The notes: generated by a model not told the origin, from the letters alone. Positions 14,768 through 50,631 are shown, counted from the first letter of the stretch. The stretch is 59,578 nt of DNA from Fidelibacterota bacterium (GCA_046482575.1 JAWOEU010000035.1:1-59578); one strand, 5' to 3'. Numbers and translations are program-made.

Positions 14768-15192
14768 GCAGTTCGGTACGTTTTTTTAATGAAAGTCCTT
14801 TTGACCTTCCGATGAAAAATGATTCAGCCGCTGCCTTGTTGTTAAAAGTAATGCGATCACTGGGCAAAACGGAAGTAAAGGTAAATATTATAGCAAAGAG
14901 TGATGAAGAACTGCGGGAAATGAAAAAAACTTATTTTGGCAAAGATCTTTATACGGATGTGATCACCTTTACAATAGAAGATGAACCGGTTCTCGAAGGA
15001 GAGATATACTGCAGTCCGGAACGTATCATAAAAAATGCCGGACGCTTTTCAGAATCTCCGTCGCGGGAATTCGCCCGTGTTCTGATACATGGCGCGGCAC
15101 ATCTTTGCGGCTACAGGGATTACAGCGAGGAGGAACGCCGGGAAATGCGGCAGCTGGAAAACGAATTTTTAACGCAATTTTATGATGAATGA
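14764..15192 (+). CDS. ybeY: rRNA maturation endoribonuclease YbeY
   Basis: HGAAHLCGYRD metal motif, with Asp where E. coli has the third His. ATGA overlap with the upstream gene, and classic ybeY-corC synteny. Confidence 0.88.
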   Translation: MSSSVRFFNESPFDLPMKNDSAAALLLKVMRSLGKTEVKVNIIAKSDEELREMKKTYFGKDLYTDVITFTIEDEPVLEGEIYCSPERIIKNAGRFSESPSREFARVLIHGAAHLCGYRDYSEEERREMRQLENEFLTQFYDE

Positions 15193-16466
15193 ATATGTCT
15201 GTTTCCGTTAATATTTTCCTTTTTGTCATACTGCTGATCTTTTCCGGACTTTTTTCCGGGAGTGAAACGGCGCTTTTCGGTGCACGAAAGGAAAATCTCC
15301 GGAAACTAAAAAGCATATCTTCACGCCGGACGCTCAAACTGTTGAGCAGACCCCAGAAACTGCTTATCACCATTCTTGTTGGAAATACGCTTGTAAATAT
15401 TGCGCTGGCCACTATCGCATCGATCACTACCTACGAGTTGGCGCAAAAGTATGGATTTTCTCATATTCTGACCGCTTTTCTCGAGGTTGCCGTTGTAACC
15501 TTGATATTGCTTATATTCGGCGAGATCATCCCGAAAACCATTGCCCTGCACAATGCAAAACGCGTCAGTCTGGCAATGAGTGCTTTTATCGGTGTCTGTT
15601 ATACCGTTTTTTTTCCGCTGACCATCATTCTTTACTATCTGGGGAGATTACTTGAAAAATCCCTGAAGGTAAGGGAAGATAGAATTATCCACAGCGAGGA
15701 AGATATTAAAACCCTTGTGCAGATCGGTGAAGAACGCGGTGCGTTCGAGGAAAAAGAGATTGAAATGATCACCTCTCTGCTGGAGTCTTCCGATACCTGC
15801 GTGCGGGAGATCATGATACCGCGCCCGGATATGATCTCTGTGGATGCAGGCCGGCCGATCGGGGAAATATTTAATTTTGTCTGTAATCAGCGTTTTGCAC
15901 GTTTTCCCGTATATAAGAATGACCTGGATAATATCATCGGATTCATTTTTGAAAAGGATGTTCTTCCGTATCTGGACGGGGAGAAGAAAACAGATATTGA
16001 AAGTCTTTTACACCCCCCGCTTTTTATTCCCGAAAATTCAAGTATTTCTTATACGATCACACTTTTTCAGGAAAAAAAGACCAAGATCGCGATCGTGGTG
16101 GATGAGTACGGCGGGACCAGCGGAATGATAACGCTGGAAGATGCCATTGAGAAGATCGTCGGCGATATTCAGGATGAAAATGAAGTCTCAAGTTCTTCAA
16201 TCAAATGGCTGACAAGAAATGAATGTGCGGTAAATGCCAGCGTCAATCTGGATGAACTTGAGAACGTATTGAAGATCAGCTTTCCCGAAGAACGCGTTTA
16301 TGATACACTGGGGGGATTTGTTATGGACCGTCTTGGACGTATACCTGCGAAACATGATGCCTTCCGTTATAAAAATCATATTTTTATTGTGGATGAAATG
16401 GAAAATAAACGTGTACAGCGGATCCGTATAACACGCGTTCACCGGAAAGCACAGCCCAAAAAATGA
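15189..16466 (+). CDS. CNNM/CorC-HlyC family membrane protein (DUF21 + CBS pair + CorC_HlyC)
   Basis: 4-TM DUF21 N-terminus, CBS pair (IMIPR...), and a C-terminal transporter-associated domain. Confidence 0.9.
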   Translation: MNMSVSVNIFLFVILLIFSGLFSGSETALFGARKENLRKLKSISSRRTLKLLSRPQKLLITILVGNTLVNIALATIASITTYELAQKYGFSHILTAFLEVAVVTLILLIFGEIIPKTIALHNAKRVSLAMSAFIGVCYTVFFPLTIILYYLGRLLEKSLKVREDRIIHSEEDIKTLVQIGEERGAFEEKEIEMITSLLESSDTCVREIMIPRPDMISVDAGRPIGEIFNFVCNQRFARFPVYKNDLDNIIGFIFEKDVLPYLDGEKKTDIESLLHPPLFIPENSSISYTITLFQEKKTKIAIVVDEYGGTSGMITLEDAIEKIVGDIQDENEVSSSSIKWLTRNECAVNASVNLDELENVLKISFPEERVYDTLGGFVMDRLGRIPAKHDAFRYKNHIFIVDEMENKRVQRIRITRVHRKAQPKK

Positions 16467-17251
16467 AATTATTTGATGAACTGATCCGTATTGTACGCAT
16501 CTTGCGTTCTCCAGAAGGATGTCCATGGGACAGGGAACAAACGCGGGAATCTCTTACGCCCTATTTTATTGAAGAAGTCCATGAAGCAGTACAGGCGAAT
16601 GAAGAGAAAAATACGGAACAACTGAAATATGAACTTGGCGATGTGCTTTTGCACGTTGTTTTTCAGACCGTGATAGCAGAAGAAAATAATGAATTCGGTT
16701 TTGAGGATGTTCTTAAAGCCGTTTGTGATAAAATGATCCGACGCCATCCCCACGTTTTCAGTAAAGACCGCGAGTACAGCTTGGAGGAAGCCAATCGTAT
16801 CTGGGAACGGCAAAAGAGCAAAGAGCCGAAAGAAAACCTTCTCGACGGCGTGCCCGGGAGTTTACCGGAATTGCACCGTTCATTACGCCTGCAGCAAAAA
16901 GCCGCTGCCGCGGGCTTTGACTGGGACAATGTGGACCGGGTCTGGGATAAAGTGGAGGAAGAATTCGCAGAATTCAGACATGCGCTTGAACAAGGGAATA
17001 AAAAAGATATTGAAGATGAGTTTGGTGATATTCTTTTTGCACTTGTCAATCTCAGCCGCTTTTATGATCTGCATCCCGGGACGGCGCTAAAAATAAGCAA
17101 TGAAAAATTCTATCGCCGTTTTTCTGCAGTGGAAAACCATTACCGGAGTAAAGGGATCTCCATGCACGGCGCCACACTCGAGGAGCTGGATGCTGTCTGG
17201 GAAAAGGTTAAAGAAAAAGAGAATAAAGAAGACGGAGAAAAAGATTCCTGA
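16463..17251 (+). CDS. mazG: Nucleoside triphosphate pyrophosphohydrolase MazG
   Basis: LRSPEGCPWDREQT motif and two MazG-type EExxE helices. ATGA overlap with the upstream gene. Confidence 0.9.
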   Translation: MKLFDELIRIVRILRSPEGCPWDREQTRESLTPYFIEEVHEAVQANEEKNTEQLKYELGDVLLHVVFQTVIAEENNEFGFEDVLKAVCDKMIRRHPHVFSKDREYSLEEANRIWERQKSKEPKENLLDGVPGSLPELHRSLRLQQKAAAAGFDWDNVDRVWDKVEEEFAEFRHALEQGNKKDIEDEFGDILFALVNLSRFYDLHPGTALKISNEKFYRRFSAVENHYRSKGISMHGATLEELDAVWEKVKEKENKEDGEKDS

Positions 17252-17513
17252 TCTGTGAATTTGTCGATCCGGTTCAGCCATCAGCCCATGGGCTTTCATT
17301 TCCGATACATATACGTTGTGAAAATAAAAAATATCTGAAATTCCTTTTTTCTGAGCGCAGATGAAGGATCCATTCGGAAGTTGCGCGTATTTTCCGCACA
17401 GACAAGCATTTTGAACAGCATTGTGTCCCGATTTCTTACCTCTGAGCTATGTTCTCTTTCCATTCCGTACAAAACGAAAAAAAACCTTGAATTTCAATAG
17501 GAATATTGTAAAT

Positions 17514-17532
17514 TATAATTGGCATATGCCAA
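17514..17532. promoter_or_regulatory. TATAAT -10-like hexamer overlapped by the perfect 14-bp palindrome TTGGCATATGCCAA (candidate operator)
   Basis: TATAAT is at 17514-17519 and the palindrome at 17519-17532. AGGAG lies at 17536-17540 and the ATG at 17550. Confidence 0.4.
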
Positions 17533-17549
17533 AATAGGAGAAGATACAG

Positions 17550-17981
17550 ATGCCGAGACCATTTAAGGCACGACGGATTTACGGTGAATTTGCAGCGGAA
17601 TACTTCAAGCCCAGGGGGAAACAATTGGCCGCTCTGGAAGAGGTGCGCCTGGAAGCTGATGAAATAGAAGCACTCCGGCTGGCCGATCTTGAAGGAGAAT
17701 ATCAGAATGATGCAGCTTTGAAAATGGGCGTTTCACGGCAGACGTTCGGAAATATACTTAAACGGGCACATCAGAAAGTTGCAGATGCGCTGATCGGCGG
17801 GAAAGCCATTCGTTTGGAAACCGCAGTTTCCGGCGCTATGTGGTGCCGGCAATGCGGAAGAAGCTGGATGGATACAGAATTAACGCCCGGTTACCGCCAA
17901 TGTCCCGCTTGTTACGGTGAAACAAAACAAATGAATGTTTCAGCAGGACGCGGACGGAGAAGAAGCAGGGGACAGAAGTAA
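17550..17981 (+). CDS. DUF134/UPF0251 family HTH protein with a C-terminal CxxC...CxxC extension
   Basis: MPRPFKARRI...FKPRG N-terminus and HTH GVSRQTFGNILKRAHQKVA. An extra WCRQCG...CPACYG ribbon and a GRGRRRSRG tail are present. Confidence 0.85.
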   Translation: MPRPFKARRIYGEFAAEYFKPRGKQLAALEEVRLEADEIEALRLADLEGEYQNDAALKMGVSRQTFGNILKRAHQKVADALIGGKAIRLETAVSGAMWCRQCGRSWMDTELTPGYRQCPACYGETKQMNVSAGRGRRRSRGQK

Positions 17982-17998
17982 TAAAAAAGGAGGATATT

Positions 17999-18316
17999 AT
18001 GCCAAGAGGAGACAGAACAGGACCTGACGGATTAGGAGCAATGACCGGAAGGAGACTCGGATTTTGCAGCGGTTATGACAGTCCGGGTTTTACAAAATGC
18101 TCAGCCGGTTTCGGCAGAGGAATGGCTTACGGACGCGGAGGCGGTTATGGATATGGATACGGAAGAGGCTTCGGCCGGAGGGCAGAGCCCGTACCCTATC
18201 CTCCGGAAGCACGCGATGATAAGAACGATGAACTCCGGACCTTAAAGGATCAGGCGCGGCAGATGGAGGAGAATCTTAATGCCCTCAACGCCAGGATCGG
18301 CGAACTGGAGAAATAA
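17999..18316 (+). CDS. DUF5320 family protein
   Basis: MPRGDRTGPDGLGAMTGR N-terminus typical of DUF5320, a GRG/GYG-rich linker and a C-terminal coiled coil. Confidence 0.8.
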   Translation: MPRGDRTGPDGLGAMTGRRLGFCSGYDSPGFTKCSAGFGRGMAYGRGGGYGYGYGRGFGRRAEPVPYPPEARDDKNDELRTLKDQARQMEENLNALNARIGELEK

Positions 18317-18318
18317 CG

Positions 18319-18717
18319 ATGGTCTATGTTGATCCGGATCTGTGTACCGGTTGTGAAGCGTGTGTAAATGCATGTCCGGATGGCTTTGTCATGGAAAACG
18401 GCATTGCCATTATCAAAGATCCCGGTATTTCCTGTATCCGGGAAGCGCAGAAGATATGCCCCGTTTCGGCCATTAAGAACGCCGGGTTTGGAAAGGAAGT
18501 GTCAACGACATCACAGGATTCCGCGTCCCCTCCGGGAAATGATTTTGCCTCCCAAAGGCGTTCCGGAGGCGGTTTCCGCGGCAGGGGACCCGGAAAAAAG
18601 GGCGGTCCCGGCGGATATTGCGTATGCCCGCGCTGCGGGCATAAAGAGCCGCACCGGGCGGGCCGGCCCTGTTATCAGCAGCGCTGTCCGGAATGCAATG
18701 CCTTGATGACACGGTAG
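18319..18717 (+). CDS. [4Fe-4S] ferredoxin-like domain fused to a cysteine-rich zinc-ribbon
   Basis: CTGCEACVNACP plus a distal CPVSAI, an RG-rich linker, and a C-terminal CxCxxC-x11-C-x4-CxxC. Confidence 0.8.
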   Translation: MVYVDPDLCTGCEACVNACPDGFVMENGIAIIKDPGISCIREAQKICPVSAIKNAGFGKEVSTTSQDSASPPGNDFASQRRSGGGFRGRGPGKKGGPGGYCVCPRCGHKEPHRAGRPCYQQRCPECNALMTR

Positions 18718-18781
18718 GGTAAATATACAAAAGATCAGGATGTGGATCGCATCGATGCGGTGACAGGGAGAATATCTATTT

Positions 18782-19663
18782 ATGAAAATTGCTGTAGCAA
18801 GCGGAAAAGGCGGAACAGGAAAAACCACGTTGTCAACCAATCTGGCATCTTTTCTCGCCGAAAGCCGTGAAACGGTTCTGGCCGACCTGGATGTAGAAGA
18901 ACCCAACTCGGGCCTGTTCATCCGGGCACAAGCGGGCGGGGAGGAAGACAAATATAAAATGATCCCGGAATGGGATGCGGGAAAATGTACTTTATGCGGT
19001 ATTTGCAGGGAAGTGTGCAATTTTAACGCCGTTACGCAGATCATGGACGAGATCATGGTCTTCCCGCAATTGTGTCACAGCTGTTATGCCTGCTCGGAAC
19101 TGTGCCCCCGTGACGCATTGCCGATGAAAAAGCAAAAGATGGGGGTGCTCCGCTATTTTAAGCAGGGAAATCTTTCCTTTGTTGAAAGTGAACTTGACAT
19201 CGGCGAAGAACAGGCGGTGCCGCTGATAGCGCAGACCATTGCATACGTGGACAGGCATTGTCCCGGGGATGTCATCAAGATCTTCGATGCCCCGCCGGGA
19301 ACTTCCTGCCCGGTGATCGAGGCGACAAAAGATGCCGACCTCGTTATTCTGGTTACGGAACCCACGCCCGTGGGACTGCATGATCTCAGCCTGGCGGTTG
19401 AGACCATGAAAGCACTGAAAAAAGATTTTTGTGTTGTCATCAACCGTGACGGTCTGGGGAATGCCGATGTGGAAAACTATTGTGTCAGGGAAAATATCCC
19501 CATCATTGCGAAGATCCCTAACCAGAGGAGCATCGCGGAGTTTTATTCCGACGGGAAATTATTGTATCATGACATTGATGTGGTGAAGGATGCCCTGGAT
19601 ATGATCATTGCATACATTGATAAAAGATCCGGGAAGACGGGAACGGATAAGGATCGCAAATGA
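18782..19663 (+). CDS. MinD/ParA-type P-loop ATPase with inserted 2x[4Fe-4S] ferredoxin module (COG1149-like), paralog 1
   Basis: Deviant Walker A SGKGGTGKTT, inserted CTLCGICREVC and CHSCYACSELCP motifs, and conserved PPGTSCP. Confidence 0.88.
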   Translation: MKIAVASGKGGTGKTTLSTNLASFLAESRETVLADLDVEEPNSGLFIRAQAGGEEDKYKMIPEWDAGKCTLCGICREVCNFNAVTQIMDEIMVFPQLCHSCYACSELCPRDALPMKKQKMGVLRYFKQGNLSFVESELDIGEEQAVPLIAQTIAYVDRHCPGDVIKIFDAPPGTSCPVIEATKDADLVILVTEPTPVGLHDLSLAVETMKALKKDFCVVINRDGLGNADVENYCVRENIPIIAKIPNQRSIAEFYSDGKLLYHDIDVVKDALDMIIAYIDKRSGKTGTDKDRK

Positions 19664-20529
19664 AAGAGATCGTGGTCATATCGGGAAAAGGCGGTACGGG
19701 GAAAACCTCACTGACAGCTTCTTTTGCATATCTGGCCGCCGGCGATATTATTGTTGCCGACTGCGATGTTGATGCGGCGGATATGCACGTGTTCCTGCAG
19801 CCGGATTTTGCAAATGAAAAGGATTTTTACAGCGGGCAGGTGGCGGTCATTGATCCCGGTATATGTACGGATTGCGGGAAATGCGTCCGGACCTGCCGCT
19901 TTGACGCTATCCGCATCATTAACGGCAGGCATGCCGTGAACGCCCTGGATTGCGAAGGCTGCGGCTATTGTTCGAGGATCTGTCCCGTGAACGCCATTAC
20001 GGACAAGGACAATCATGTGGGCTGGTGGTATCGTTCCGCGATCAAAACGGGGACAAAGATGCTGCATGCAAAAATGAAGGTCGGCGCCGAAAATTCCGGA
20101 AAGCTTGTGGCGAAGGTAAAAAAGGAAGCAAAACGTATGGCCGAAGAAGGAAAAAAGAAGCTTGTGCTGGTCGACGGTTCGCCCGGGACAGGCTGTCCCG
20201 TGGTTTCATCGCTTTCGGGAGCAAGTTATGTTATCCTGGTCACGGAACCTACTGTCTCCGGACTGCACGACCTTCAGCGAGTCTACGAACTGGTGGAGAA
20301 ATTCCGGATCAAAGCAGGATGCATTGTGAATAAGGCGGATCTGAATCGGAACAAAAGGGATGATATCGCCGCCTATCTCAAGAAAAAAGGTATAGACCAT
20401 CTTGCCGACATACCCTATGATGAAACCTTTACGCGGGCGATGGTCAGCGGTAAAACCATGGCCGAATTTACCGGGAGCAGAGTACGGAAAATTCTGGTAG
20501 AGACCTGGAATAAGATCGTTAATAAATAA
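19660..20529 (+). CDS. MinD/ParA-type P-loop ATPase with inserted 2x[4Fe-4S] ferredoxin module (COG1149-like), paralog 2
   Basis: SGKGGTGKTS, CTDCGKCVRTC and CEGCGYCSRICP motifs, and SPGTGCP. ATGA overlap with paralog 1. Confidence 0.88.
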   Translation: MKEIVVISGKGGTGKTSLTASFAYLAAGDIIVADCDVDAADMHVFLQPDFANEKDFYSGQVAVIDPGICTDCGKCVRTCRFDAIRIINGRHAVNALDCEGCGYCSRICPVNAITDKDNHVGWWYRSAIKTGTKMLHAKMKVGAENSGKLVAKVKKEAKRMAEEGKKKLVLVDGSPGTGCPVVSSLSGASYVILVTEPTVSGLHDLQRVYELVEKFRIKAGCIVNKADLNRNKRDDIAAYLKKKGIDHLADIPYDETFTRAMVSGKTMAEFTGSRVRKILVETWNKIVNK

Positions 20530-20557
20530 CATAAACGTAAAACCCAAAAGGAAAAAC

Positions 20558-20896
20558 ATGAAAATTGCATTTACATCAAAAGGAAAAGACTGGGATGCAC
20601 CTGTAGATCCGAGATTCGGCCGCACAGAATATTTTTTCATTTACGATGAAGAAAAGGATGAATCACGGATCGTAGACAATACGGAAGTCAAGAACGAAGC
20701 CCACGGTGCAGGACCGAAAACCGCGCAGAAGCTTTTTGAAGAAAAGGCGGATGTGCTGATCACCGGTAACGGACCGGGCGGAAACGCCGCATCGGTCCTT
20801 GAAAAGGCGGGTATACGCATCTATACGGATGCCGGAGATATGAGTGTTAGGGAAGCTTATGCAGCGTATAGGAAGGGCGATCTGAAGCAATTCTGA
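20558..20896 (+). CDS. NifX/NifB-C-terminal-like (dinitrogenase FeMo-cofactor-binding domain family) protein 1
   Basis: 112 aa with MKIAFTS...VDPRFGRTEYFFIYD ... VLITGNGPGGNA..L...GI.IY, typical of the PF02579-type fold. Confidence 0.85.
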   Translation: MKIAFTSKGKDWDAPVDPRFGRTEYFFIYDEEKDESRIVDNTEVKNEAHGAGPKTAQKLFEEKADVLITGNGPGGNAASVLEKAGIRIYTDAGDMSVREAYAAYRKGDLKQF

Positions 20897-21026
20897 AGAG
20901 AAACCGTATATCGAATGCACAAAGAAATTTGTCATTTATTTTCCGAAAAAAATGTATGTTGCGGGTGATTATCCGCAAGCGTTCAGCGGAACCGGAGAAA
21001 GTAAAAAAGAAAAAAAGGAGAAAAAT

Positions 21027-21362
21027 ATGGTTATTACCGTACCCGTTGTACAGAAAAGGCTTTCACAGCATTTCGGACACTGTGAGACATTTCGCTTTTA
21101 TTATACCGATAAAGACAATAATATTATTAATACCGAGGAAAAAACGCCCCCGCCCCATGAACCCGGAGTACTTCCCAAATGGCTCTCGGAAGAAGGAGCG
21201 GATGTTATTATTACCGGCGGCATGGGAATGCATGCTCAGCGCCTTTTCAGTAATTACGGCATTGAAGTGGTACTTGGAGCGCCCGCAGAAGACCCCGGAT
21301 GCGTTGTAAAGGAATGGATAGGGGGAAATCTGCAGACCGGTGAAAACCCCTGCGATCATTAA
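21027..21362 (+). CDS. NifX/NifB-C-terminal-like protein 2
   Basis: ATG 21027 has a strong AAGGAG RBS, whereas the track start at 20952 adds a low-complexity leader. Motifs: LSQHFGHCETFRFY ... VIITGGMGMHAQRLF..GIEVV. Confidence 0.8.
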   Translation: MVITVPVVQKRLSQHFGHCETFRFYYTDKDNNIINTEEKTPPPHEPGVLPKWLSEEGADVIITGGMGMHAQRLFSNYGIEVVLGAPAEDPGCVVKEWIGGNLQTGENPCDH

Positions 21363-21394
21363 TAAACAAATAAACATTTTCTGTGATAGAAAAA

Positions 21395-21419
21395 AACACC
21401 CCGCCGACGGCGGGGTGTT
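21395..21419. terminator. GC-rich hairpin acting as terminator (T-run on the minus strand after tRNA-Glu; ends the plus-strand operon)
   Basis: The aacaccccgcc / ggcggggtgtt 11-bp stem has A7 on its left flank, which is T7 for the minus strand. Confidence 0.7.
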
Positions 21420-21423
21420 GCAG

Positions 21424-21495
21424 TATCCCGTAGGGGAGTCGAACCCCTGTTGCAGGAATGAAAATCCTGAGTCCTAACCACTGAACGAACGGGAC
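21424..21495 (-). tRNA. tRNA-Glu (anticodon TTC), no encoded CCA
   Basis: 72 nt: GTCCCGT..., anticodon arm CAGGA-TTTTCAT-TCCTG, T-arm AGGGG-TTCGACT-CCCCT, 3' end ACGGGAT-A. Confidence 0.92.
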
Positions 21496-21657
21496 ACTTG
21501 TCAAAGCCCGAAAGTATAAAATGTTTTATATAAAGAGGCAAGAAAAATTTTTATATTTTCCCGAAACCCGAAAAAAATTGAAGTAAATGATATAAAAATA
21601 TTGTTTTCATTATCAATACGGACTTCTTTTCTTTTGCAGTAAGGTTTATCGACGGTC

Positions 21658-22440
21658 TCAGGGATTTTCCAGATAGCTGACCGTGAAATAGCGGTCGGGG
21701 ACATCCGGGTTCAATGCAAATTCCTGCATGATCATATCTGAACTGCGTCCGTCCTGTACATTCCGGATCTTCATGTGCGTTATCAGATAACGCGGAGGTG
21801 CTTCAGAGACTGTCTCATAGTCCGTTACGGTCAGCACCTTATGCAGAATATTGTCAAAGTCATAGTATTCGGAATGCACGGCCACACCTTCTTCCTTTGT
21901 TATCCAACTGATCTTGCGGAGAAAGCCATATTCGTCCTCCGCAGCCGTACTGACGGGCCTGATCTCTATTTTCCAGCAGGGTCGTCCCTGCTTTTTCTCT
22001 TCTCCCAGCAATACATAATTGAAATCATCCGGATTCGGAGCGGACATGTCCGCCTTGGAGAATTCCGAACCCATGAAGGAAGAGCTTTTCTCCGAAGACA
22101 CGATACGTCGCGATTTCCGGCTGACAGGAAGATATATCCACATATCGTCCTTCCGGTCTTCATAGTCGACGATGAGCATGCCCATGCCTTTGACATCCGC
22201 CGGTTCAAGAAAACGGATGATCCGTTTCTCAATATCGCCGGGATAGCTTTTTGAGGCCATGGCAGTGGTGCGCACCCGTTCCCGCTCTTTTGCATCACGG
22301 ATAATAAGAGTGGAAGTAGCCTCAAATCCCTTTAGTTTACTGCGTTCGCGGGAGGAGAGAATAATATCCCGTGCTGTTTCGGCAAAAAGTGAAGCACTTA
22401 GTAATACGATCAGGCATGCCATAGATATTTTTTTCATCAT
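21658..22440 (-). CDS. LolA-like / DUF1329-type outer membrane lipoprotein-sorting family protein
   Basis: Signal peptide, size and sequence style of the LolA_like family. It has a 4-nt overlap with the MMPL gene. The family call is by resemblance only. Confidence 0.7.
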   Translation of the reverse strand: MMKKISMACLIVLLSASLFAETARDIILSSRERSKLKGFEATSTLIIRDAKERERVRTTAMASKSYPGDIEKRIIRFLEPADVKGMGMLIVDYEDRKDDMWIYLPVSRKSRRIVSSEKSSSFMGSEFSKADMSAPNPDDFNYVLLGEEKKQGRPCWKIEIRPVSTAAEDEYGFLRKISWITKEEGVAVHSEYYDFDNILHKVLTVTDYETVSEAPPRYLITHMKIRNVQDGRSSDMIMQEFALNPDVPDRYFTVSYLENP

Positions 22441-30227: not shown

Positions 30228-31706
30228 ATGCCTGAACGATCTTCCGGACTCCTGTTGCATATAAGCTCTCTCCCTTCCGCCTGGGGAAAGGGTGATTTTG
30301 GTATGGAGTCTTATAAATTTATTGACTGGCTCGAACGGACAGAGCAGTCCTTGTGGCAGATACTGCCGCTTACCTATCCCGATATGACCGGTTCACCGTA
30401 TGCAAGTCCTTCTGCGAATGCCATTAATCCCGATTTTGTCAGTCCGGACATGCTGAGAAAAGACGGTTTATTAAATGATGATGAATGGGAGTACTGTCAG
30501 TGGGTGCGGGATGGCGATGTTCACGACGTGCGGCAACAAGCATTTATGCTGGCATATGTCAATTGGAAAAACAGGCCGGACGACGATGAATTCACGGTAT
30601 TTTGCAATGATCATTCCTACTGGCTTGACGACACGGCATTATTTATGACCATCCGCGAATATTTTCCCGGAAGCTGGTATGATTTTCCCGAAGGACTCAG
30701 GAACCGGGATAAAGAAGCGGTCACTCAATGGGAACGGGAACATGCAGATGATATTCTGCAGTTCAAGTTCGAACAATTTATCCTTTTCCGTCAATGGGGA
30801 AGAATTAAAAGTTATGCCAATGAAAAAAATATTCGCATCATTGGTGATATCCCGGTCTTTATCTCAACCGATTCCGCGGATGTATGGTCGCACCGGAAAC
30901 TTTTCAAACTTGATGAACAAGGTGTCCCGAAGGTACTGACCGGCGTGCCGCCGGATCTTTTTACCAGTACGGGACAATTATGGGGACAACCGCATTTTGA
31001 CTGGAAAGCCATGAAATCCGATGATTACCGCTGGTGGATTGAGCGTGTCCGTGTAGGAAAGCTTCATGCGGATATCCTGCGAATAGATCATTTTCGCGGC
31101 TTTTGCGCTGCCTATGAGATCCCCTATGGAGCTGAAACCGCAATGAACGGCGAGTGGGTCGAAGGTCCGCGTGACGATATTTTTCACGTACTGCACAGGC
31201 ACATTCCCGGTCTTTATATTATAGCTGAGGATCTTGGTGTTATTACTCCCGATGTGACGGCATTGCGCAAGCGCTTTCATTATCCCGGTATGAAAGTCCT
31301 GCAGTTTGCTTTTAACAGTGATGAGAACAATACCTATCTGCCTGAAAATTTTGACCCTGAAGACCGGTTCGTGGTCTATACGGGGACGCATGACAATAAC
31401 ACCACCCGCGGCTGGTATGAGAATGCAGATAAAAATGAAAAAGAAATGCTGAGGCGATATATAAAGAAAGATACCGGCATCGTATGGGAATTGATAAAAA
31501 TGGCTTTTTATTCCAATGCCATGTGGGCGGTAATACCCTTACAGGATCTGCTGGGACTGGGGAGTTCCGCACGCATGAATACTCCGGGAACGGTCATGGG
31601 AAACTGGAAATGGCAGCTGGATGAATTTAACCTGCCGGAAGAACGTGCACAAGAATTAAGGGATCTTACACGGGAAAGCGGAAGAGACACTCCATTAACA
31701 GTATGA
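30228..31706 (+). CDS. malQ: 4-alpha-glucanotransferase (amylomaltase, GH77)
   Basis: SSGLLLHISSLPS..GKGDFG N-terminus, RIDHFRGF and TGTHDN motifs. Confidence 0.93.
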   Translation: MPERSSGLLLHISSLPSAWGKGDFGMESYKFIDWLERTEQSLWQILPLTYPDMTGSPYASPSANAINPDFVSPDMLRKDGLLNDDEWEYCQWVRDGDVHDVRQQAFMLAYVNWKNRPDDDEFTVFCNDHSYWLDDTALFMTIREYFPGSWYDFPEGLRNRDKEAVTQWEREHADDILQFKFEQFILFRQWGRIKSYANEKNIRIIGDIPVFISTDSADVWSHRKLFKLDEQGVPKVLTGVPPDLFTSTGQLWGQPHFDWKAMKSDDYRWWIERVRVGKLHADILRIDHFRGFCAAYEIPYGAETAMNGEWVEGPRDDIFHVLHRHIPGLYIIAEDLGVITPDVTALRKRFHYPGMKVLQFAFNSDENNTYLPENFDPEDRFVVYTGTHDNNTTRGWYENADKNEKEMLRRYIKKDTGIVWELIKMAFYSNAMWAVIPLQDLLGLGSSARMNTPGTVMGNWKWQLDEFNLPEERAQELRDLTRESGRDTPLTV

Positions 31707-32476
31707 AAAATTTGCAAGAGAAACATCTCCATCCGCAGGTTGAAGAAATAAAACCCCCCTTCTACTTTTTTTCCGACACCCACATTTCCTCGCGTCAGGG
31801 AAAAGCACAGAAGCAGCGCATGGAAAAATTACTGAAACACCTGAAAAAGATAAAGGACACGGGAGGAACTTTATTTATACTCGGCGATTTCTTTGATTTC
31901 TGGTTCGATTGCCGTAATTATATTCCCGAAACACTTAAGCCGCTTGTCGGGATGTTGTCCGGCCTCCGGGAAAATGGCATAGAGATCCACTATGTGGGCG
32001 GTAATCATGATTACTGGGTACGGGGATATTTAACGCAGGAACTGGGAATTCATTTTTATCCGGATGCGATCGCATTTACATATGAAGGAACAAGATTTTA
32101 TTGTCAGCATGGCGATGAGGTGGTCTATAACCACGCCGTTTATCCATACATCCGGAAGATCCTGCGTTCTTCCTCTGCCATTGCACTGTTAAAATTACTT
32201 CCCGTAAAATGGATATACACACTTGGAGAAGGGGTCAGCCACTATAACCGCGCACTGACACGCATCCCCCGGGTGCCCGAAGAAATTGTTGATGAAATGC
32301 GTGCATTTCTTTATGAAAAGTTAAAAAACGGGTATGATATTACCATAAGCGGACATATTCACAAACCCTGTTATGAAACAAAAAACGGGAAAAGCATGGT
32401 TATTCTGGGGGACTGGATCCATCATTGCAGTTATGGTATATGGGATGTATCCGGGTTCCGTCTTATACAGGAATAA
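31703..32476 (+). CDS. lpxH: UDP-2,3-diacylglucosamine diphosphatase (LpxH-like calcineurin-type metallophosphoesterase)
   Basis: FFSDTHI, ILGDFFDFW, GGNHDYW and QHGDE motifs. Confidence 0.72.
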   Translation: MKNLQEKHLHPQVEEIKPPFYFFSDTHISSRQGKAQKQRMEKLLKHLKKIKDTGGTLFILGDFFDFWFDCRNYIPETLKPLVGMLSGLRENGIEIHYVGGNHDYWVRGYLTQELGIHFYPDAIAFTYEGTRFYCQHGDEVVYNHAVYPYIRKILRSSSAIALLKLLPVKWIYTLGEGVSHYNRALTRIPRVPEEIVDEMRAFLYEKLKNGYDITISGHIHKPCYETKNGKSMVILGDWIHHCSYGIWDVSGFRLIQE

Positions 32477-32480
32477 CGCG

Positions 32481-34244
32481 ATGAAATATAAATCGTACTT
32501 CGTTGTCTTTCTTTTATTTTTTTCTTTGCTTCCGTTAAAAAGTAATGCTGCGGATACTACAATGGTATATGCCGACCAGCTGAATCATTATTATATGTTT
32601 GGCGGATGGAATCATTTTTCAGCAGCTTACAATAATATCTATATCAGCAGCAACATCAGGAACAGCAGTTCCATGTACAGTGAAACTTCACGCCTGAAGA
32701 CACAAACAGATATGTCCGGTGATCTCCTGTACATGTTTTCCCCACGGACACGCGCCGGATTGACGGCAAAATATTATCTTTTCCGCGATGGACAGAGTTC
32801 CCATGCTAATGATTATGATCAGTCACGATTCGGAATAAAGGGAGATTACAAAAAAAAGCAATATACTTTTCTGCTGGAAAGCGGATATGCACGGGAAACC
32901 CGATTGGGAATACGGGATATGGGATGGTACGGCGGAATGGAACTGTCACGGAATCAAAGCGGACTGATGTTCTATCCCGAACTTGACTGGGATTATTCCC
33001 GGATGGGCGATCGCCGTAATTATACCTTTGATAATCGCATATCTTTCCGTGTAAACCCGTCGTCATCTTTTAAGAACCGTTTTTCAGCAGGAGTAAAAAT
33101 ATACAATCGTGAATACTATATCACTCATGATGCGGATACGGAAGAACGCTTCAACACCACTGCATACATTCGCAATGATCTGCGTTATCCTCTTCATGAA
33201 AAAGTTGTGCTTCATTATCGTTTACACTTTTCCAGCAGTCGCGACGGTCTGCAGTTTAATTATTACGATGAAAAGGAAACCCGTACCCGCCGGTTTCTTG
33301 GTTTGCAGAACGATATCCGTCTGCAGGCAAAATCGGGCAGTTTCAGTGGGTATATCGGTTTTTCAAATGATTATAAGCAGAGCGGTATAAGCGCGACAAA
33401 TCCCGGAATATCACTGCCTGCAGATTATATTTTTGATAAAAAAAGCGTTCTGGGCCGTCTTTCCTGGCGCATTTCGGAAAATGACAGTCTGTTCGTTAAT
33501 TATCTGGGATCATTGCTTTATTATGACACGCCGGATACGAATAATTATGATGACCGCGATGAACTTACTTATTCCATTTCCCCGGCCTGGCATCACCGCC
33601 TGGATCGTTATACCCGCTTGCGTGTTTCGGCGAATGTATTTCTTCATCACTATGTCTATCTTTTTCATCAGCGTTCGGCACAAAACCACTGGAACCGGGT
33701 TTTTTCCATTAAATCAGAGGTAAATACGCATATTCCCCGGGTGATCCGCTGGAATGCAAAACAAGAGATCTACGCAAACTATTTTGTTTACGATCATGAG
33801 GACTCTGCCTTTGTTCATGTTCAGAGCATGATATTCCGGGGACTGAAGCTTCAGCAGAATATTCAATGGTATCTCAACGCAAACTGGTTTTTGCAGGCCA
33901 ATATATTTTTCCGTTTTGAAGATAACGGTTTATTGGACTGGGAGGCATTTATTCAAAATAGGACGGACAGTAAATATACCATAAAATGTGGATTGAAACC
34001 GGGCTATAAAATAAAAGATGTCAGTATTGCCGCCGGTCCGGTTTTTTCTTACCGCAGGGATTTTCGATATGTGGATCTGGATACACGTGAAGAAAGTTAT
34101 TACTCCCGGAGAGCGGGAGGAGCCGTTTCCTTCAGGTACAAGAATAATATTTCTTTCAGCTACCGCCTGGAGCAGATCAGGCAACCGAATACCGGGAAGT
34201 CATACAATCAGTCGGGAACACTGCGAATTAACTGGATATTCTGA
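32481..34244 (+). CDS. Outer-membrane beta-barrel protein of unknown family
   Basis: ATG 32481 gives a clean signal peptide (LLPLKSNA/AD). The sequence is Y/R/N/S-rich with alternating strands and a C-terminal ...LRINWIF. The track start at 32373 overlaps lpxH. Confidence 0.6.
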   Translation: MKYKSYFVVFLLFFSLLPLKSNAADTTMVYADQLNHYYMFGGWNHFSAAYNNIYISSNIRNSSSMYSETSRLKTQTDMSGDLLYMFSPRTRAGLTAKYYLFRDGQSSHANDYDQSRFGIKGDYKKKQYTFLLESGYARETRLGIRDMGWYGGMELSRNQSGLMFYPELDWDYSRMGDRRNYTFDNRISFRVNPSSSFKNRFSAGVKIYNREYYITHDADTEERFNTTAYIRNDLRYPLHEKVVLHYRLHFSSSRDGLQFNYYDEKETRTRRFLGLQNDIRLQAKSGSFSGYIGFSNDYKQSGISATNPGISLPADYIFDKKSVLGRLSWRISENDSLFVNYLGSLLYYDTPDTNNYDDRDELTYSISPAWHHRLDRYTRLRVSANVFLHHYVYLFHQRSAQNHWNRVFSIKSEVNTHIPRVIRWNAKQEIYANYFVYDHEDSAFVHVQSMIFRGLKLQQNIQWYLNANWFLQANIFFRFEDNGLLDWEAFIQNRTDSKYTIKCGLKPGYKIKDVSIAAGPVFSYRRDFRYVDLDTREESYYSRRAGGAVSFRYKNNISFSYRLEQIRQPNTGKSYNQSGTLRINWIF

Positions 34245-35248: not shown

Positions 35249-36262
35249 TTATTTTTCGAATGCTAACTGCAGATAAACGTTTTTATCCACGTAAACATTA
35301 ACGACATCCCAGATATTCTCAGAATAATCAGGGAGCAGAACCCTGCCGAGAGGAGAAAGAATAAATTTATTTCCGTCGCGGGAAGAAAAAATGAAGGGAA
35401 TTTCGCTTGTATTTTCCAATAAGGCATCATTGCCCTGCACATCGATTTTCAGACAGGCACGAACAAAATCTTCCACGAGTTTTTCCGGACCCGCCAAAAT
35501 ATTTTTTTCCGTTACGGCAATAGATCTTCCGGCAAATAAGGCTTCTTTCACCGATTCTTCGTTGCGTTTTTCTGCAAACACCAGGGTCAGGGGGCGATGA
35601 GCGGATTCCGAAAAAGCTTCGGAAGAAATACCGTGAATGTCGGAATTCCCCAGTACGGCAAGATCATGTTCGTTTGTATATTTCAGAACAGCGGGATAAT
35701 AATCACGCCAGTTCGCGAATTCAATACCGTGCATCCAGCCGCGTTCGATCAGGGTTGTATGTATATCATACCAGCGGACCACACGGTCCGGCTGGTGCAC
35801 GATCCATCCCGGATGATTCCAGAAGATAAAAGCCCCCTGGCGGACAGCTTCCTCGATCGCCGGCAGGAACTCCTTAATAATGAGCTTATTTGCATCCTGA
35901 ATAAAAATAGCGTTAAAATGCCCCGGCGGCATCCATCGCGTAAACTCCACACCCGCAATACAAATAATATCCTTTCGCTTTGCGCGTTTAGCGGCAATTT
36001 CAAAAGAAAAATTATGGTCTTCCTTCAGATATTTTTTATGAGGCAGATATTCCAGATGATCGGTAATGGCAATTACATCAATACCTTCATTCACGGCTTC
36101 ATCCACGCGGATGGTCGGCCACACCAGACCGTCCGAAAAAACCGTATGCATATGAAGGTCGCATTTTAACGTTTTATATTCACCGAGATCGGGGACTATC
36201 TGTGCATTGAGTATTGCCGCCGATACCGGAAGCATTAACAAAAAAAGATATATTTTTCGCAT
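35249..36262 (-). CDS. Secreted PHP-domain metal-dependent phosphoesterase
   Basis: Signal peptide, CDLHMHTVFSDG ... AITDHLEY PHP motifs, and a later NSDIHG. Confidence 0.8.
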   Translation of the reverse strand: MRKIYLFLLMLPVSAAILNAQIVPDLGEYKTLKCDLHMHTVFSDGLVWPTIRVDEAVNEGIDVIAITDHLEYLPHKKYLKEDHNFSFEIAAKRAKRKDIICIAGVEFTRWMPPGHFNAIFIQDANKLIIKEFLPAIEEAVRQGAFIFWNHPGWIVHQPDRVVRWYDIHTTLIERGWMHGIEFANWRDYYPAVLKYTNEHDLAVLGNSDIHGISSEAFSESAHRPLTLVFAEKRNEESVKEALFAGRSIAVTEKNILAGPEKLVEDFVRACLKIDVQGNDALLENTSEIPFIFSSRDGNKFILSPLGRVLLPDYSENIWDVVNVYVDKNVYLQLAFEK

Positions 36263-36457
36263 ATGGCACCTTTAGTGTTATTGCATTATGCGGAAAATAT
36301 ACATTAAAAAACCTGAAAAGCGAATGCAAAAATGTCAGACATGAACAGCAGAATGAATTTTATTCTGTTTTTTGTGAAACGCCGCGTATGATGAAATTCT
36401 ATTTCAAAAACGTCTGTCTTTTGTTATATTCATTTTAACAAAAAATAAGGAATACCG

Positions 36458-46851: not shown

Positions 46852-48207
46852 ATGAAGCAAAGATTAGTACAAAAGCAGATTCAGAAACTTGCGCCCATGC
46901 AGCTCATGCTTGCCCGTCTTTCGCAATTGGGTCAGATGGATCTGGAACGTGCTGTGGTAAAAGAAGTGGAAAAAAACCCCCTGCTGGAGATGGAAGACGA
47001 TACACAGGGAACAAATGAGAAACAAACGTATCAGGATGACCCCGAACTTGAATTTCAGGGTGACCGCTTTTCATCATCCCATTATTGGGGAAGAGAAATA
47101 GATCCCGCAGAACTGCAGCAGGAAGACGAGCTGGATTTTTTCGAACGGCTGCTTGTTCAGGTCCGGGAATCGGGGTTGCCGGAAGAGGACCTGCCGCTTG
47201 CCGAGCAAATTATCGGAAGCCTGGATGAAAATGGTTTTTTGAGAGACACGCCGCTGGAGAACATCGCCTACAAATTTTCCGTTCCTTATGAACATGCCGA
47301 AGAAATTTTGCGCAGTATTCAGGAAACGGGACCTCCCGGCATAGCGGCGCGTGATCTGAAAGAATGCATGCTTTTACAGCTAAAAGCACATCATGAGGAA
47401 CCCTTTGTCATTGATATCATTAAAAAACACTACGATGATTTTGCGGCCGGCAAATATGAAAAGATCCGCAGGGAACTTGATATTAGTGAAAACGAGATGC
47501 TGTATGCGCGAAAACAAATAGCAAAACTGAATCCCAAACCGGCAGCGGGACATACCGATTATTTGAAAAAAAGTATTATTCCGGATATTATTCTGAGCAA
47601 GAAGAACGGTAATTTCTATATTTCTCTCAATGAAACAGGCACCCCGGGGGTTCGCTTATCACCGACCTACCTGAAAATGCTTGATAACGGCGATCTGGAC
47701 CGTGATACAAAACGCTATCTGGACAGTCATAAACAAGCGGCGAGTTTGTTCATTCAGGCGATCGAACAGCGAAAGCGCTCCATTCTTGCCGTTGCACGCG
47801 CCATCGTGAATCGCCAGCGCGATTTTTTACTGGATAGAAGAGAGTATCCCGAACCTATGGTGATGAAGGAAGTGGCCGCCGATACCGGACTGGATGTTTC
47901 CACAATCTCACGCATTGCCAACGGAAAATATATGCAGACCCCGGACGGCATATATGAGCTAAGATATTTTTTCAGTGAAAAAGCCGGGCGCAGTGATGCT
48001 GTGAGTTCATCAACGCGCGATCTCGAAAAAGATCTTTTGAAAATTGTGGAGAAGGAAAAGAAAAGCAAACCTCTCAGTGACGAACAATTGCGTGAGGAAT
48101 TAATGAAAAAAGGATATCATATCGCTCGCAGGACAGTAAGCAAATACCGGGAAAAACTGCATATTCCCACTTCCCGTGAGCGGCGCAAAAAAAAGGATAG
48201 ATCATGA
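46852..48207 (+). CDS. rpoN: RNA polymerase sigma-54 factor
   Basis: Region I (Q/L-rich), HTH, and RpoN box [10 protein letters not shown]. Confidence 0.95.
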
Positions 48208-48743: not shown

Positions 48744-50101
48744 AAGCATTGACACCAAGAGAAATTGTAGAAGAACTGGACCGTTTTGTAATTGGCCAGG
48801 ATAAGGCAAAGCGTTCGGTAGCGATTGCCTTGCGGAATCGCTGGCGGCGTCAGCAGGCTGATGAAAAAATAAGGAATGAAATACTGCCCAATAATATAAT
48901 TATGATCGGTCCCACCGGTGTGGGGAAGACCGAAATTGCACGCAGACTTGCGGCACTGGCACAATCGCCTTTTATTAAGGTTGAGGCCACTAAATTTACT
49001 GAAGTCGGTTATGTGGGACGCGATGTCGAATCCATTGTCCGCGATCTTACTTATATGGCTGTGGATATGGTGGAAAAAGAACATCAGGAACTGGTTAAAC
49101 AGCGAGCTGAGGAATTGGCGGATAACCGGATCATGGACCTGCTTTTTCCCGTTGAATCCCAGGAAAAAATTGATGAGCAGGAACGTACCCGGATAAACAA
49201 AACCCGGGACCGCCTGCGGACAATGTACGAAGAAGGGAAATTTGATGAACGCTATGTGGAAATTGAAGCTCCCGAAAAAAAACCGAATATTTCAGGTATT
49301 TCCGTGATGGGACCCACAGACGGAGGAATGGGAAGCGATATGATGGATAATCCGGGAGAATTCATAAATGAAGCTATGAGTTCTCTGCTGGGAAAGAAAA
49401 AAATGAAAAAGAGGAAAATGAAAGTACCGGAAGCCCGGAAGATCCTTTTGGAAGAAGAATCCCAGAAACTGATCGACCGGAATAAGGTTATTGAGGAAGC
49501 TCTTGACCGTGTTCAGCATCACGGCATTGTTTTTATTGATGAGATCGATAAGATCACACTCAGCAGTGAAAGCAAGGGAGCGGATGTCAGCCGCCAGGGA
49601 GTGCAGAGGGATTTGCTTCCGATCGTGGAAGGAAGCACCGTAAAGACCCGTTATGGTTTTATCAAGACCGACCATATACTTTTCATTGCATCGGGGGCTT
49701 TTCATACCAGTAAACCTTCAGACCTTATACCTGAAATGCAGGGACGTTTTCCTATCCGCGTTGAACTTGACAGTCTTACCACAAAAGATTTTGTAGATAT
49801 CCTCACCCATCCTCAAAATGCTCTGATAAAACAGTATCAGGCTCTTCTGCGTTCGGAAAATGTGAACCTTGTTTTTGAAAAAGCCGCAATAGGGGAAATT
49901 GCTCAAAAAGCAACGGAAGTTAATGATAAAACAGAGAATATCGGAGCCCGGCGTCTGCATACCATTATGACACAGATCCTGGATGATATAATGTTCAATG
50001 CTCCCGATGGCAGAAATAAGATCGTTATTACACCGGAACTTGTCCGTGAATCCCTCGAATCGATTGTCATGGATGATGACCTCAGCAGGTATATTTTATA
50101 A
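48740..50101 (+). CDS. hslU: ATP-dependent protease ATPase subunit HslU
   Basis: [29 protein letters not shown] and [11 protein letters not shown] motifs. Confidence 0.96.
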
Positions 50102-50631
50102 TGTTCTTACGTGATTTACGTCTCAAGATCTGGATCCACCACCTTCAGAGAAAAAAAAGGATCCTCTTTTTTCCGCGGCCGGTTAACCTGCAGAAGCAGA
50201 TCGCCGGGGTAAGAAAGATCTGTATCTGCATGCCGGATGATCATAAATTATTTTATGAGGCGAGATCCTGTATTAAAGAAATCCGCCAAAAAAATCTGCG
50301 GGTGACACTGGTCCTCAACAAAGATCTTGAACTTCTGGCCGAACATTCAGGTAAAACAAGTGTCTATCCCCATATATTAAAAAAACCTTTTCCCATACAT
50401 GAAAGCCAGCTTGAAGGGATCCCGTCCGGCTATGATATTGCGATAGACCTTTCTCTCCGGCCGACGGCGTTGACGGCCTATATCACCGGTACACGCGGTA
50501 AAAAACTGACGGCAGGTTTTAAAAGCGGGGATTTTGATCCGTTTTATACCGTATTGGTCAAACCATCGGATAATTACTATACATCGGTAATGACGATGCT
50601 TTCGCTGGCAGGACTTGTGGAACCGGAATAA
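50101..50631 (+). CDS. Hypothetical protein, faint resemblance to the N-terminal Rossmann half of GT9 heptosyltransferases
   Basis: TAATG overlap with hslU. The KICICMPDD... and YDIAIDLS...A..ITG...K..GF pattern is only suggestive. Confidence 0.45.
   Translation: MFLRDLRLKIWIHHLQRKKRILFFPRPVNLQKQIAGVRKICICMPDDHKLFYEARSCIKEIRQKNLRVTLVLNKDLELLAEHSGKTSVYPHILKKPFPIHESQLEGIPSGYDIAIDLSLRPTALTAYITGTRGKKLTAGFKSGDFDPFYTVLVKPSDNYYTSVMTMLSLAGLVEPE

Follow-up and report, generated by a model that had tools for sequence, protein, structure and literature searches.

The closest described relative of the locus reported here is found in strict anaerobes, namely the ORP (orange protein) system. In Desulfovibrio vulgaris Hildenborough, the ORP complex consists of Orp3, Orp4, Orp5, Orp8 and MrpORP (Orp9/DVU2109); the paralogues Orp3 and Orp4 each contain a pair of [4Fe-4S] ferredoxin motifs, Orp8 is homologous to the orange protein, whose cluster is a non-covalently held [S2MoS2CuS2MoS2], Orp4 and Orp8 co-purify with His-tagged Orp3, and in vitro Fe-S transfer from MrpORP to Orp3/Orp4 has been reported (PMC6345978). 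The orp operons depend on sigma-54 and OrpR and their expression is confined to very low redox potential, whilst the role of the system was described as ‘still unclear’, with cell division as the working hypothesis (PMC8359166). Here, we analyzed a stretch of 59,578 nucleotides from a Fidelibacterota bacterium (GCA_046482575.1 JAWOEU010000035.1:1-59578; hereafter, the window), in which seven co-directional genes occupy positions 17550-21362. Judged by gene content and family membership, this locus is a Marinimicrobia (Candidatus Neomarinimicrobiota) version of the ORP system. An earlier note on this DNA had considered the ensemble to be known only at the level of domain families; that view was mistaken, as the ORP complex and its regulation have been studied in D. 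vulgaris (Fievet 2011, as relayed in PMC6345978 and PMC8359166).

Listing and translation of the open reading frames (ORFs) confirmed the seven-gene block, its motifs and its spacers of 17, 2, 64, -4, 28 and 130 nt, all genes being on the plus strand. The first gene, g1 (17550-17981, 143 amino acids (aa)), encodes a DUF134 helix-turn-helix (HTH) protein with a C-terminal CxxC...CxxC ribbon, presumed to be a regulator, and g2 (17999-18316, 105 aa) a DUF5320 protein with a Gly/Arg-rich N-terminus containing two cysteines and a C-terminal coiled-coil-like helix. In g3 (18319-18717, 132 aa), a single-cluster ferredoxin (residues 1-57) is joined through a linker rich in Gly and Arg to a Cys6His ribbon (residues ~68-132). 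Next come g4 (18782-19663, 293 aa) for ATPase 1 (A1), a MinD/NifH-class P-loop NTPase of the Orp3/Orp4 type with an inserted 2x[4Fe-4S] ferredoxin domain, and g5 (19660-20529, 289 aa) for its paralogue ATPase 2 (A2), 30% identical to it; the g4 stop and g5 start share 4 nt (ATGA). The last two genes are g6 (20558-20896, 112 aa), coding for X1, a NifX-fold protein with a single domain and no cysteine, of the orange protein/TM1290/MTH1175 type, and g7 (21027-21362, 111 aa), coding for X2, a homologue, standing on its own, of MrpORP's C-terminal ‘Di-Nase’ domain. The longest ORF for g7 starts at 20952; we chose the ATG at 21027, which is preceded by an AAAGGAG ribosome-binding site and agrees with homologues beginning MVI(T/S)VPV.

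The family calls of the earlier note all held in a Pfam scan. Both g6 and g7 matched PF02579 (Nitro_FeMo-Co; 1e-19 and 71.0 bits, and 2e-18 and 66.7 bits, respectively; cut-off 26.3). Against solved structures, g6, which contains no cysteine, matched TM1290 (1RDU, 1e-17), the D. gigas ORP (2WFB, 9.8e-14, residues 2-108) and MTH1175 (1EO1, 3e-11). The NCBIfam model NF041136 for MrpORP matched g7 at an E value of 7e-35, with 120.9 bits (cut-off 450), over model positions 255-365 of 365 only. Moreover, g7 carries HFGHCE and a C-terminal CDH, the two motifs named for MrpORP's Di-Nase domain (PMC6345978). Among X2 proteins in general, HFGxC was present in 52 of 56 and a C-terminal CxH in 37 of 56.

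Related loci were collected by scanning one genome per GTDB species, which yielded 80 loci (numbered L001 onwards where they have to be told apart). Members of the block were identified in them with profiles built from the seven window proteins, and their counts refer to genes at most 5 kb from A2. In four of these loci, a MrpORP gene scoring above the cut-off of 450 bits lies beside an A1-A2 pair (L036, 510 bits; L068, 557; L073, 515; L078, 498) whose A2 is 44-47% identical to g5, and in L071 the P-loop part and the g7-type part of MrpORP are separate genes. These arrangements place the window cluster and the ORP system in one family. Within it, the form with DUF134 and DUF5320 is commoner than the OrpR form, since PAS sigma-54 activators resembling OrpR were found in only 7 loci; DUF134 or DUF5320 was present in 51/80.

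The 80 loci come from about 20 phyla, with methanogens and Asgard archaea among their hosts. Bacterial loci came from Marinimicrobia, Bacteroidales, Calditrichota, Spirochaetes, Campylobacterota, Cloacimonadota, Synergistaceae, Desulfobacterota, Dehalococcoidia, Planctomycetes, Omnitrophota, Clostridia, Elusimicrobia, Acidobacteriota and Verrucomicrobiota, and archaeal loci from Methanohalophilus, Methanocellaceae, Thorarchaeota and Altiarchaeota. A1 accompanied A2 in 72/80 loci, immediately upstream of it in 61/80 and fused to it in 2/80. A NifX-fold gene of any kind was likewise present in 72/80, with the g6 type in 65/80, the g7 type in 49/80 and both types in 42/80, whereas DUF5320 (38/80, Maridesulfovibrio included), the ribbon family of g3 (29/80) and DUF134 (25/80) were less frequent. 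The conserved core is thus formed by A1-A2 and the NifX-fold carriers, with the Cys6His ribbon and DUF5320. Synteny is strongly conserved: a relative at 66% identity keeps the order DUF134, DUF5320, A1, A2, NifX, NifX. The g6-g7 spacer, 130 nt in the window, varies in size (47 nt in L003, a 66% relative, and 141 nt in L001, the closest species-level genome, a Candidatus Neomarinimicrobiota metagenome-assembled genome (MAG) with 91% identity in g5).

With regard to the ATPase pair, both g4 and g5 matched the Pfam families CbiA/ParA and Fer4, and both carry GKGGTGKT and two CxxCxxCxxxC motifs, together with GTSCP in g4 and GTGCP in g5. Across 16 diverse family members, the invariant positions comprised the deviant Walker A with its signature lysine, D34, D36, the eight ferredoxin cysteines, the Walker B aspartate D172 and G176-x-x-C179-P180, and only one invariant cysteine lay outside the ferredoxin insert. 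This switch-II cysteine, seven residues after the Walker B aspartate, could serve as a bridging ligand, possibly at a dimer interface, as the earlier note had suggested. An AF2 model of g5 (pLDDT 88.5, pTM 0.79) was nearest to the solved folds of MinD and FleN/FlhG, followed by NifH/BchL, ATPase-type HypB, Cfd1 and ApbC; no solved structure of the g4/g5 family itself was found.

The family is large: among representatives of clusters at 50% identity, 5567 are related to g5 at E ≤ 1e-3 and 767 at E ≤ 1e-30. Of the top matches to g5, about 30 are ~600 aa long and match the query over two separate stretches, and are therefore likely A1::A2 fusions; in both proteins that were checked with separate A1 and A2 profiles (L020 and L052), the fusion was confirmed. 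These natural fusions, the position of A1 directly upstream of A2 in most loci, the 4-nt overlap and the presence of the signature lysine in both paralogues indicate that g4 and g5 most likely form a nucleotide-dependent heterodimer. The two paralogues differ systematically in the base-recognition motif: NKxD, the guanine-specificity motif of P-loop GTPases, was present in 74/83 A2 proteins (NKAD in g5, residues 224-227, 20326-20337) and in 0/80 A1 proteins, which have NRxx instead (NRDG in g4). The pair may therefore use ATP or GTP, and its paralogues may be asymmetric in this respect.

Of the two genes directly upstream of the pair, g2 matched PF17253 (DUF5320) at 6.5e-26, with 91.8 bits (cut-off 27), and g3 matched Fer4_13 at 6.6e-09. 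In residues ~68-132 of g3 (18520-18717), a Gly/Arg-rich stretch leads into a ribbon with the consensus GGxCvCPxCGxkxPHxxGxPCxxxxCPxCgxxMxR, of which six cysteines and one histidine are conserved at 90% or more. Elsewhere, stand-alone ribbon genes of ~75 aa usually lie just upstream of A1 (e.g., L035 8808-9032 and L081 7565-7795). No Pfam family matched the ribbon above threshold, the N-terminus of the stand-alone versions being weakly DUF5320-like (26 bits, cut-off 27). A reading of the corresponding small genes of other loci as ferredoxins was considered and rejected, as their profile matches the ribbon half of g3. The fusion of ferredoxin and Cys-rich ribbon claimed by the earlier note was confirmed, and found in Marinimicrobia only; other fusions join the ribbon to NifX-fold domains or to DUF134. 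On this distribution, the conserved cluster member in g3 is the Cys6His ribbon, and the ferredoxin is a Marinimicrobia-specific addition. The 66% relatives L003-L005 have no ferredoxin::ribbon gene. As a separate observation, this gene is split over two frames in the 91% relative (L001 1238-1679, MAG JAGYLW010000007), owing to either an assembly frameshift or a pseudogene.

Regulation of the block was approached through g1 and the region upstream of it. g1 matched PF02001 (DUF134) at 9e-19, with 68.3 bits (cut-off 27), and gave weak matches to HTH_29 and to sigma-70 region 4; its ribbon comprises CRQC (residue 99) and CPAC (residue 118), and a CxxC...CxxC ribbon was found in 20/36 DUF134 family members. 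The palindrome pointed out by the earlier note, TTGGCATATGCCAA, is indeed present at 17519-17532, directly after a plus-strand TATAAT hexamer (17514-17519), and its exact copy is unique in the window. It is kept in both L001 and L003, the rest of the spacer having diverged in L003, and the hexamer is conserved in L001. Read from the sequence, TATAAT is tentatively a -10 element; no convincing -35 element accompanies it, and a consensus scan called no plus-strand promoter in this region.

The palindrome belongs to a motif class, TGnnCATATGnnCA, which lies upstream of DUF134 genes in several phyla. By a fixed criterion, it was found in 15/35 upstream regions of DUF134 genes compared to 19/1353 of other genes (odds ratio 53, p 5e-17). 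The palindrome reads TGAACATATGTTCA in Bacteroidales, TGCACATATGTGCA in Calditrichota and TGGACATATGTCCA in Dehalococcoidia, and a related palindromic site occurs in a Methanocellaceae archaeon. Two copies ~33 nt apart are present in L002 (7407, 7440) and L017 (6816, 6849), and further sites include L008 7579, L013 8366 and L083 2590. The motif also precedes ORP-type operons that start with NifX or A1 genes, and those that have no adjacent DUF134 gene (L030, L032, L033, L037). The palindrome is therefore likely the operator of the DUF134 regulator. In the literature searched, we found no description of the TGnnCATATGnnCA motif and nothing on the function of DUF134, DUF5320 or COG1149.

Two near-copies of the palindrome core elsewhere in the window, TCGCATATGGCA at 36257-36268 (start of a PHP-domain gene, in the intergenic region that it shares with a divergent NlpC/P60 gene) and TGGCATATGTCA at 30550-30561 (inside malQ), are probably due to chance. 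A sigma-54 promoter upstream of g1 was rejected, since no -24/-12 element with up to 3 mismatches was found in 17252-17549; no gene for an enhancer-binding protein, OrpR-like or other, lies beside the block. The host itself has sigma-54: rpoN is encoded at 46852-48207, in an lptC-lptB-rpoN-hslVU arrangement, in the same window as this ORP-type operon without a -24/-12 element.

Further indications came from the neighbours that recur in the census, named by Pfam. These were a CGGC domain protein (16 loci), radical SAM (12) and metallo-beta-lactamase (12) proteins, ARMT1-like/DUF89 (11), NifU_N/IscU (11), an FmdB-type Zn ribbon (10), a CoA-disulfide-reductase (CoADR)-like flavoprotein with rhodanese (9), the OrpR-like activator mentioned above, the ‘heavy-metal chelation’ family DUF364 (5), Fur (5) and the ArsP_2 permease (4). 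We take Orp5 to be the CGGC protein, provisionally, from the gene order in Maridesulfovibrio (L070) and in line, reportedly, with Maiti 2016. Gene fusions were also found, namely A1::A2, NifX1::NifX2, Mrp::NifX2, DUF134::NifX1, DUF134::ribbon, NifX::ribbon and CDF::NifX2, which make a single functional unit of the seven gene types. The last of them (L029 14938-16116; CDF superfamily 6.8e-59, NifX2 domain at residues 280-387) lies ~5 kb from the A1-A2 pair of a Candidatus Vecturithrix MAG.

Taken as a whole, we consider it probable, with moderate confidence, that the block is an ORP-type system for nucleotide-gated handling of metal-sulfide clusters under the control of DUF134. The earlier note's idea of a nucleotide-gated metallocluster machine agrees with this, in that it fits both the published homologues and the neighbours; it is nonetheless something we infer. 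The metal and sulfur theme of the neighbours (CGGC, radical SAM, IscU/NifU_N, CoADR-rhodanese, DUF364, Fur, MrpORP, CDF::NifX) supports cluster handling, and points to Fe-S, metal and sulfur handling over cell division, although a biochemical function is not thereby established.

In the mechanism we propose, each subunit of a g4:g5 heterodimer would carry two ferredoxin-type [4Fe-4S] clusters in addition to the invariant switch-II cysteine, and g6 and g7 would be its partners. An ATPase-orange protein complex is known only from D. vulgaris (PMC6345978), and by analogy one may form here; Fe-S transfer from MrpORP is likewise known from homologues. g6, Cys-free and of the orange-protein type, would hold an inorganic metal-sulfide cluster non-covalently, whereas g7, of the MrpORP C-terminal type, would offer Cys/His ligands for an Fe-S cluster. 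Nucleotide binding and hydrolysis would then gate electron transfer and/or cluster hand-over to or from g6 and g7. The handled cluster would be Fe-S, possibly Mo/W-S, under strongly reducing conditions, its identity and the direction of hand-over being conjectural. g2 and the g3 ribbon would act as conserved accessory proteins, g3 having gained its own ferredoxin in the Marinimicrobia lineage. Finally, g1, with its DUF134 HTH and Cys4 ribbon, would be a dedicated regulator in place of OrpR/sigma-54, and probably binds the CATATG-centred palindrome abutting the -10 region, which would lead to autoregulation of the operon.

Several points weigh against this proposal. The orange protein's Mo-Cu cluster may not be physiological, and the presence of NKxD in most A2 proteins leaves even the nucleotide, ATP or GTP, uncertain. 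The switch-II cysteine could not be aligned by sequence to Cys132 of NifH, for which an approximate sequence was used. Missing from the window are three companions of the pair elsewhere, namely Mrp's P-loop domain, the CGGC protein and IscU, so any cluster donor would be encoded outside the window. Binding of DNA by DUF134 is a prediction, and by the strict definition the motif was present in only 15 of the 35 upstream regions. Lastly, no ORP complex has an established biochemical function, and the Desulfovibrio authors favour cell division or morphology (PMC8359166). Metallocluster handling is, even so, the best-supported reading of the locus, set against the published cell-division hypothesis for the homologous complex.

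Among the alternatives, the pair could be an ATP-driven low-potential reductase, NifH/BchL-like or activase-like, in which nucleotide hydrolysis drives electrons from the ferredoxin domains to a client enzyme, with the NifX-fold proteins as adaptors and not cluster carriers. NifH, BchL and the Fe proteins of methylthio-alkane reductases are among the structural matches of the g5 model, Fer4_NifH gave a partial, borderline match to g5 only (25.0 bits, at the cut-off), and a dedicated ferredoxin (g3) was added in the Marinimicrobia lineage. The spacing of seven between the Walker B aspartate and the cysteine is also that of D125 and C132 in A. vinelandii NifH, in which Cys97 and Cys132 ligate the cluster. 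However, no conserved NifDK-like, BchNB-like or dehydratase partner was found in the window or among the recurrent neighbours. In comparisons with the same approximate NifH sequence, no ORF in any locus scored above 80 bits, and the ATPase profile aligned over the P-loop and C-terminal part only, leaving the switch-II region uncovered. We regard a reductase as unlikely.

A cell-division or positioning system, in which the MinD-like NTPases are spatial regulators (septum placement, polar localisation) and the Fe-S clusters redox sensors only, appears slightly less likely again. It accords with MinD and FleN/FlhG being the closest solved folds to g5 and with the Desulfovibrio work, where loss of OrpR leads to defective cell morphology, MrpORP has a polar localisation and Orp3/Orp4 are stated to have an amphipathic helix at the C-terminus like that of MinD (PMC6345978, PMC8359166). 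The g4 C-terminus, in contrast, is a charged tail and not an amphipathic helix, and the NCBIfam models minD_bact and minD_arch gave 30-51 bits on the ATPases, far below their cut-offs of 202-213 (51 bits at best, against ~202). Moreover, the neighbours recurring in the 80 loci are Fe-S, metal and sulfur proteins, with no min, fts or other division gene among them, and positioning hardly accounts for the obligatory NifX-fold partners or for the CDF::NifX2 and Mrp::NifX2 fusions.

It is very improbable that the block is an accessory to the maturation of a nitrogenase, CODH or hydrogenase, with the pathway itself encoded elsewhere. PF02579 is common to NifX, NafY and NifB, and a window of 59.6 kb covers only part of the genome; yet g6/g7 gave only 20.2 bits with the nifX model TIGR02663 (cut-off 112) and 15.3 bits with the nifB model TIGR01290 (cut-off 344), and the window genes are all housekeeping. 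No nitrogenase, CODH or hydrogenase family was found in the window among ~40 gene-like ORFs of at least 150 aa scanned with Pfam (CorC aside), nor among the 25 most frequent families of the 97 nearest large neighbour ORFs of the census, and none recurs in the 80 loci from ~20 phyla. The earlier note had remarked upon the lack of such a context in the window, and it holds for the cluster in general. The idea that unrelated small genes lie together by chance, for which only the generic nature of ferredoxin and P-loop motifs speaks, is refuted to the point of being negligible by the gene order kept at 66% identity, the association of A1, A2 and NifX in 72/80 loci and the multiple fusions.

The block is flanked by mazG and a tRNA-Glu gene, as the earlier note had stated, and the 66% relative keeps the upstream synteny (RecJ, 7TM-HD, YbeY, CorC, MazG). 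The ORFs scanned with Pfam, together with CorC (15189-16466), which was named by synteny with L003, gave penicillin amidase, rho, ribonucleotide reductase, LysE, RecJ, a 7TM-HD protein, CorC, MazG and a LolA-like protein, as well as MMPL, AraC, AmiA, MatE, MalQ, CTP synthase, LptC/B, rpoN, HslVU, ScpAB and RecN. Neither CGGC, IscU nor other accessory neighbour families of A1-A2 pairs occur elsewhere in the window. Two ORFs, 32373-34244 (623 aa) and 50101-50631 (176 aa), had no Pfam match at E ≤ 1e-5. Downstream, the GC-rich hairpin that the earlier note took as bounding the block does exist (21395-21419) and marks the 3' boundary of the operon; its termination function, however, belongs to another gene. 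Its 11-bp stem is followed by TTTTTT on the minus strand, with no U-tract on the plus strand, and it lies directly downstream of the convergent tRNA-Glu(ttc) (21423-21495, minus strand), whose intrinsic terminator it is. Rfam detected no RNA element other than the tRNA in 17200-21700.

Of the anaerobe-specific gene sets with an unsettled function, ORP-type clusters are among the most widespread, and their identification here links an uncultured marine lineage to a small body of Desulfovibrio biochemistry. The ORP family was already known; new are the phylum and a set of regulatory and accessory genes that differs from the known one. The leads of most use are the operator motif of DUF134, the family of Cys6His ribbons and the asymmetry between A1 and A2 at NKxD. 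A broader interpretation, which we hold to be speculative and unlikely in its entirety, would see a self-contained, ancient metal-sulfide trafficking or storage machine of anaerobic Bacteria and Archaea, driven by ATP or GTP and independent of ISC, SUF and NIF, under a pan-anaerobe DUF134 regulon with the operator TGnnCATATGnnCA, from which the Desulfovibrio sigma-54/MrpORP form would be derived.

Compared with other known proteins, g4 and g5 share with the SIMIBI cluster NTPases (Mrp/NBP35/ApbC and NifH/BchL/CooC) a deviant Walker A with signature lysine, the predicted fold and the switch-II cysteine. They differ in the two-cluster ferredoxin domain, which is inserted between switch I and the remaining fold, in forming, as proposed, a heterodimeric paralogue pair, and in the NKxD of A2. 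They also lack the CxxC of Mrp, which is absent from both outside the ferredoxin insert, and a second NifH-type ligand; the MrpORP model matched their P-loops only (40 and 27 bits). By model and motif, they fall outside the NifH/Fe-protein, Mrp/NBP35/ApbC and MinD families, MinD still being the nearest solved fold. Similarly, g7 is not a full-length MrpORP, and neither NifX-fold protein belongs with nifX or nifB by model or by context, the window having no nif genes. g6 and g7 share the NifX-like domain (IPR003731/PF02579) with IssA (PF2025), the thioferrate storage protein of Pyrococcus furiosus, and with NifX, NafY and the C-terminal part of NifB, in which, by the accounts given in PMC5524996 and PMC8351635, it holds inorganic metal-sulfide species. 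Unlike IssA, they are single-domain proteins of ~111 aa without the cationic C-terminal tail (described in PMC6345978).

The comparison with the D. vulgaris ORP system itself reveals differences in organisation within a shared core. The window has no Mrp/NBP35 P-loop domain, its Di-Nase domain standing alone with no Mrp-like gene elsewhere in the window; the block has neither OrpR (DVU2106), a sigma-54 promoter nor a CGGC protein; it forms a single operon and not two divergent ones; it contains DUF134, DUF5320 and a ferredoxin::ribbon protein; and its host is a Marinimicrobia bacterium instead of a sulfate reducer. On the other hand, like Orp3/DVU2103 and Orp4/DVU2104, going by their description in PMC6345978, it has two paralogous MinD-like NTPases with two [4Fe-4S] motifs each. 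g6 is an orange-protein-type PF02579 protein like Orp8/DVU2108, and g7 is a homologue of MrpORP's (DVU2109) Di-Nase domain, with HFGHCE and CDH kept. Both types are found in anaerobes only, and both are independent of nitrogenase.

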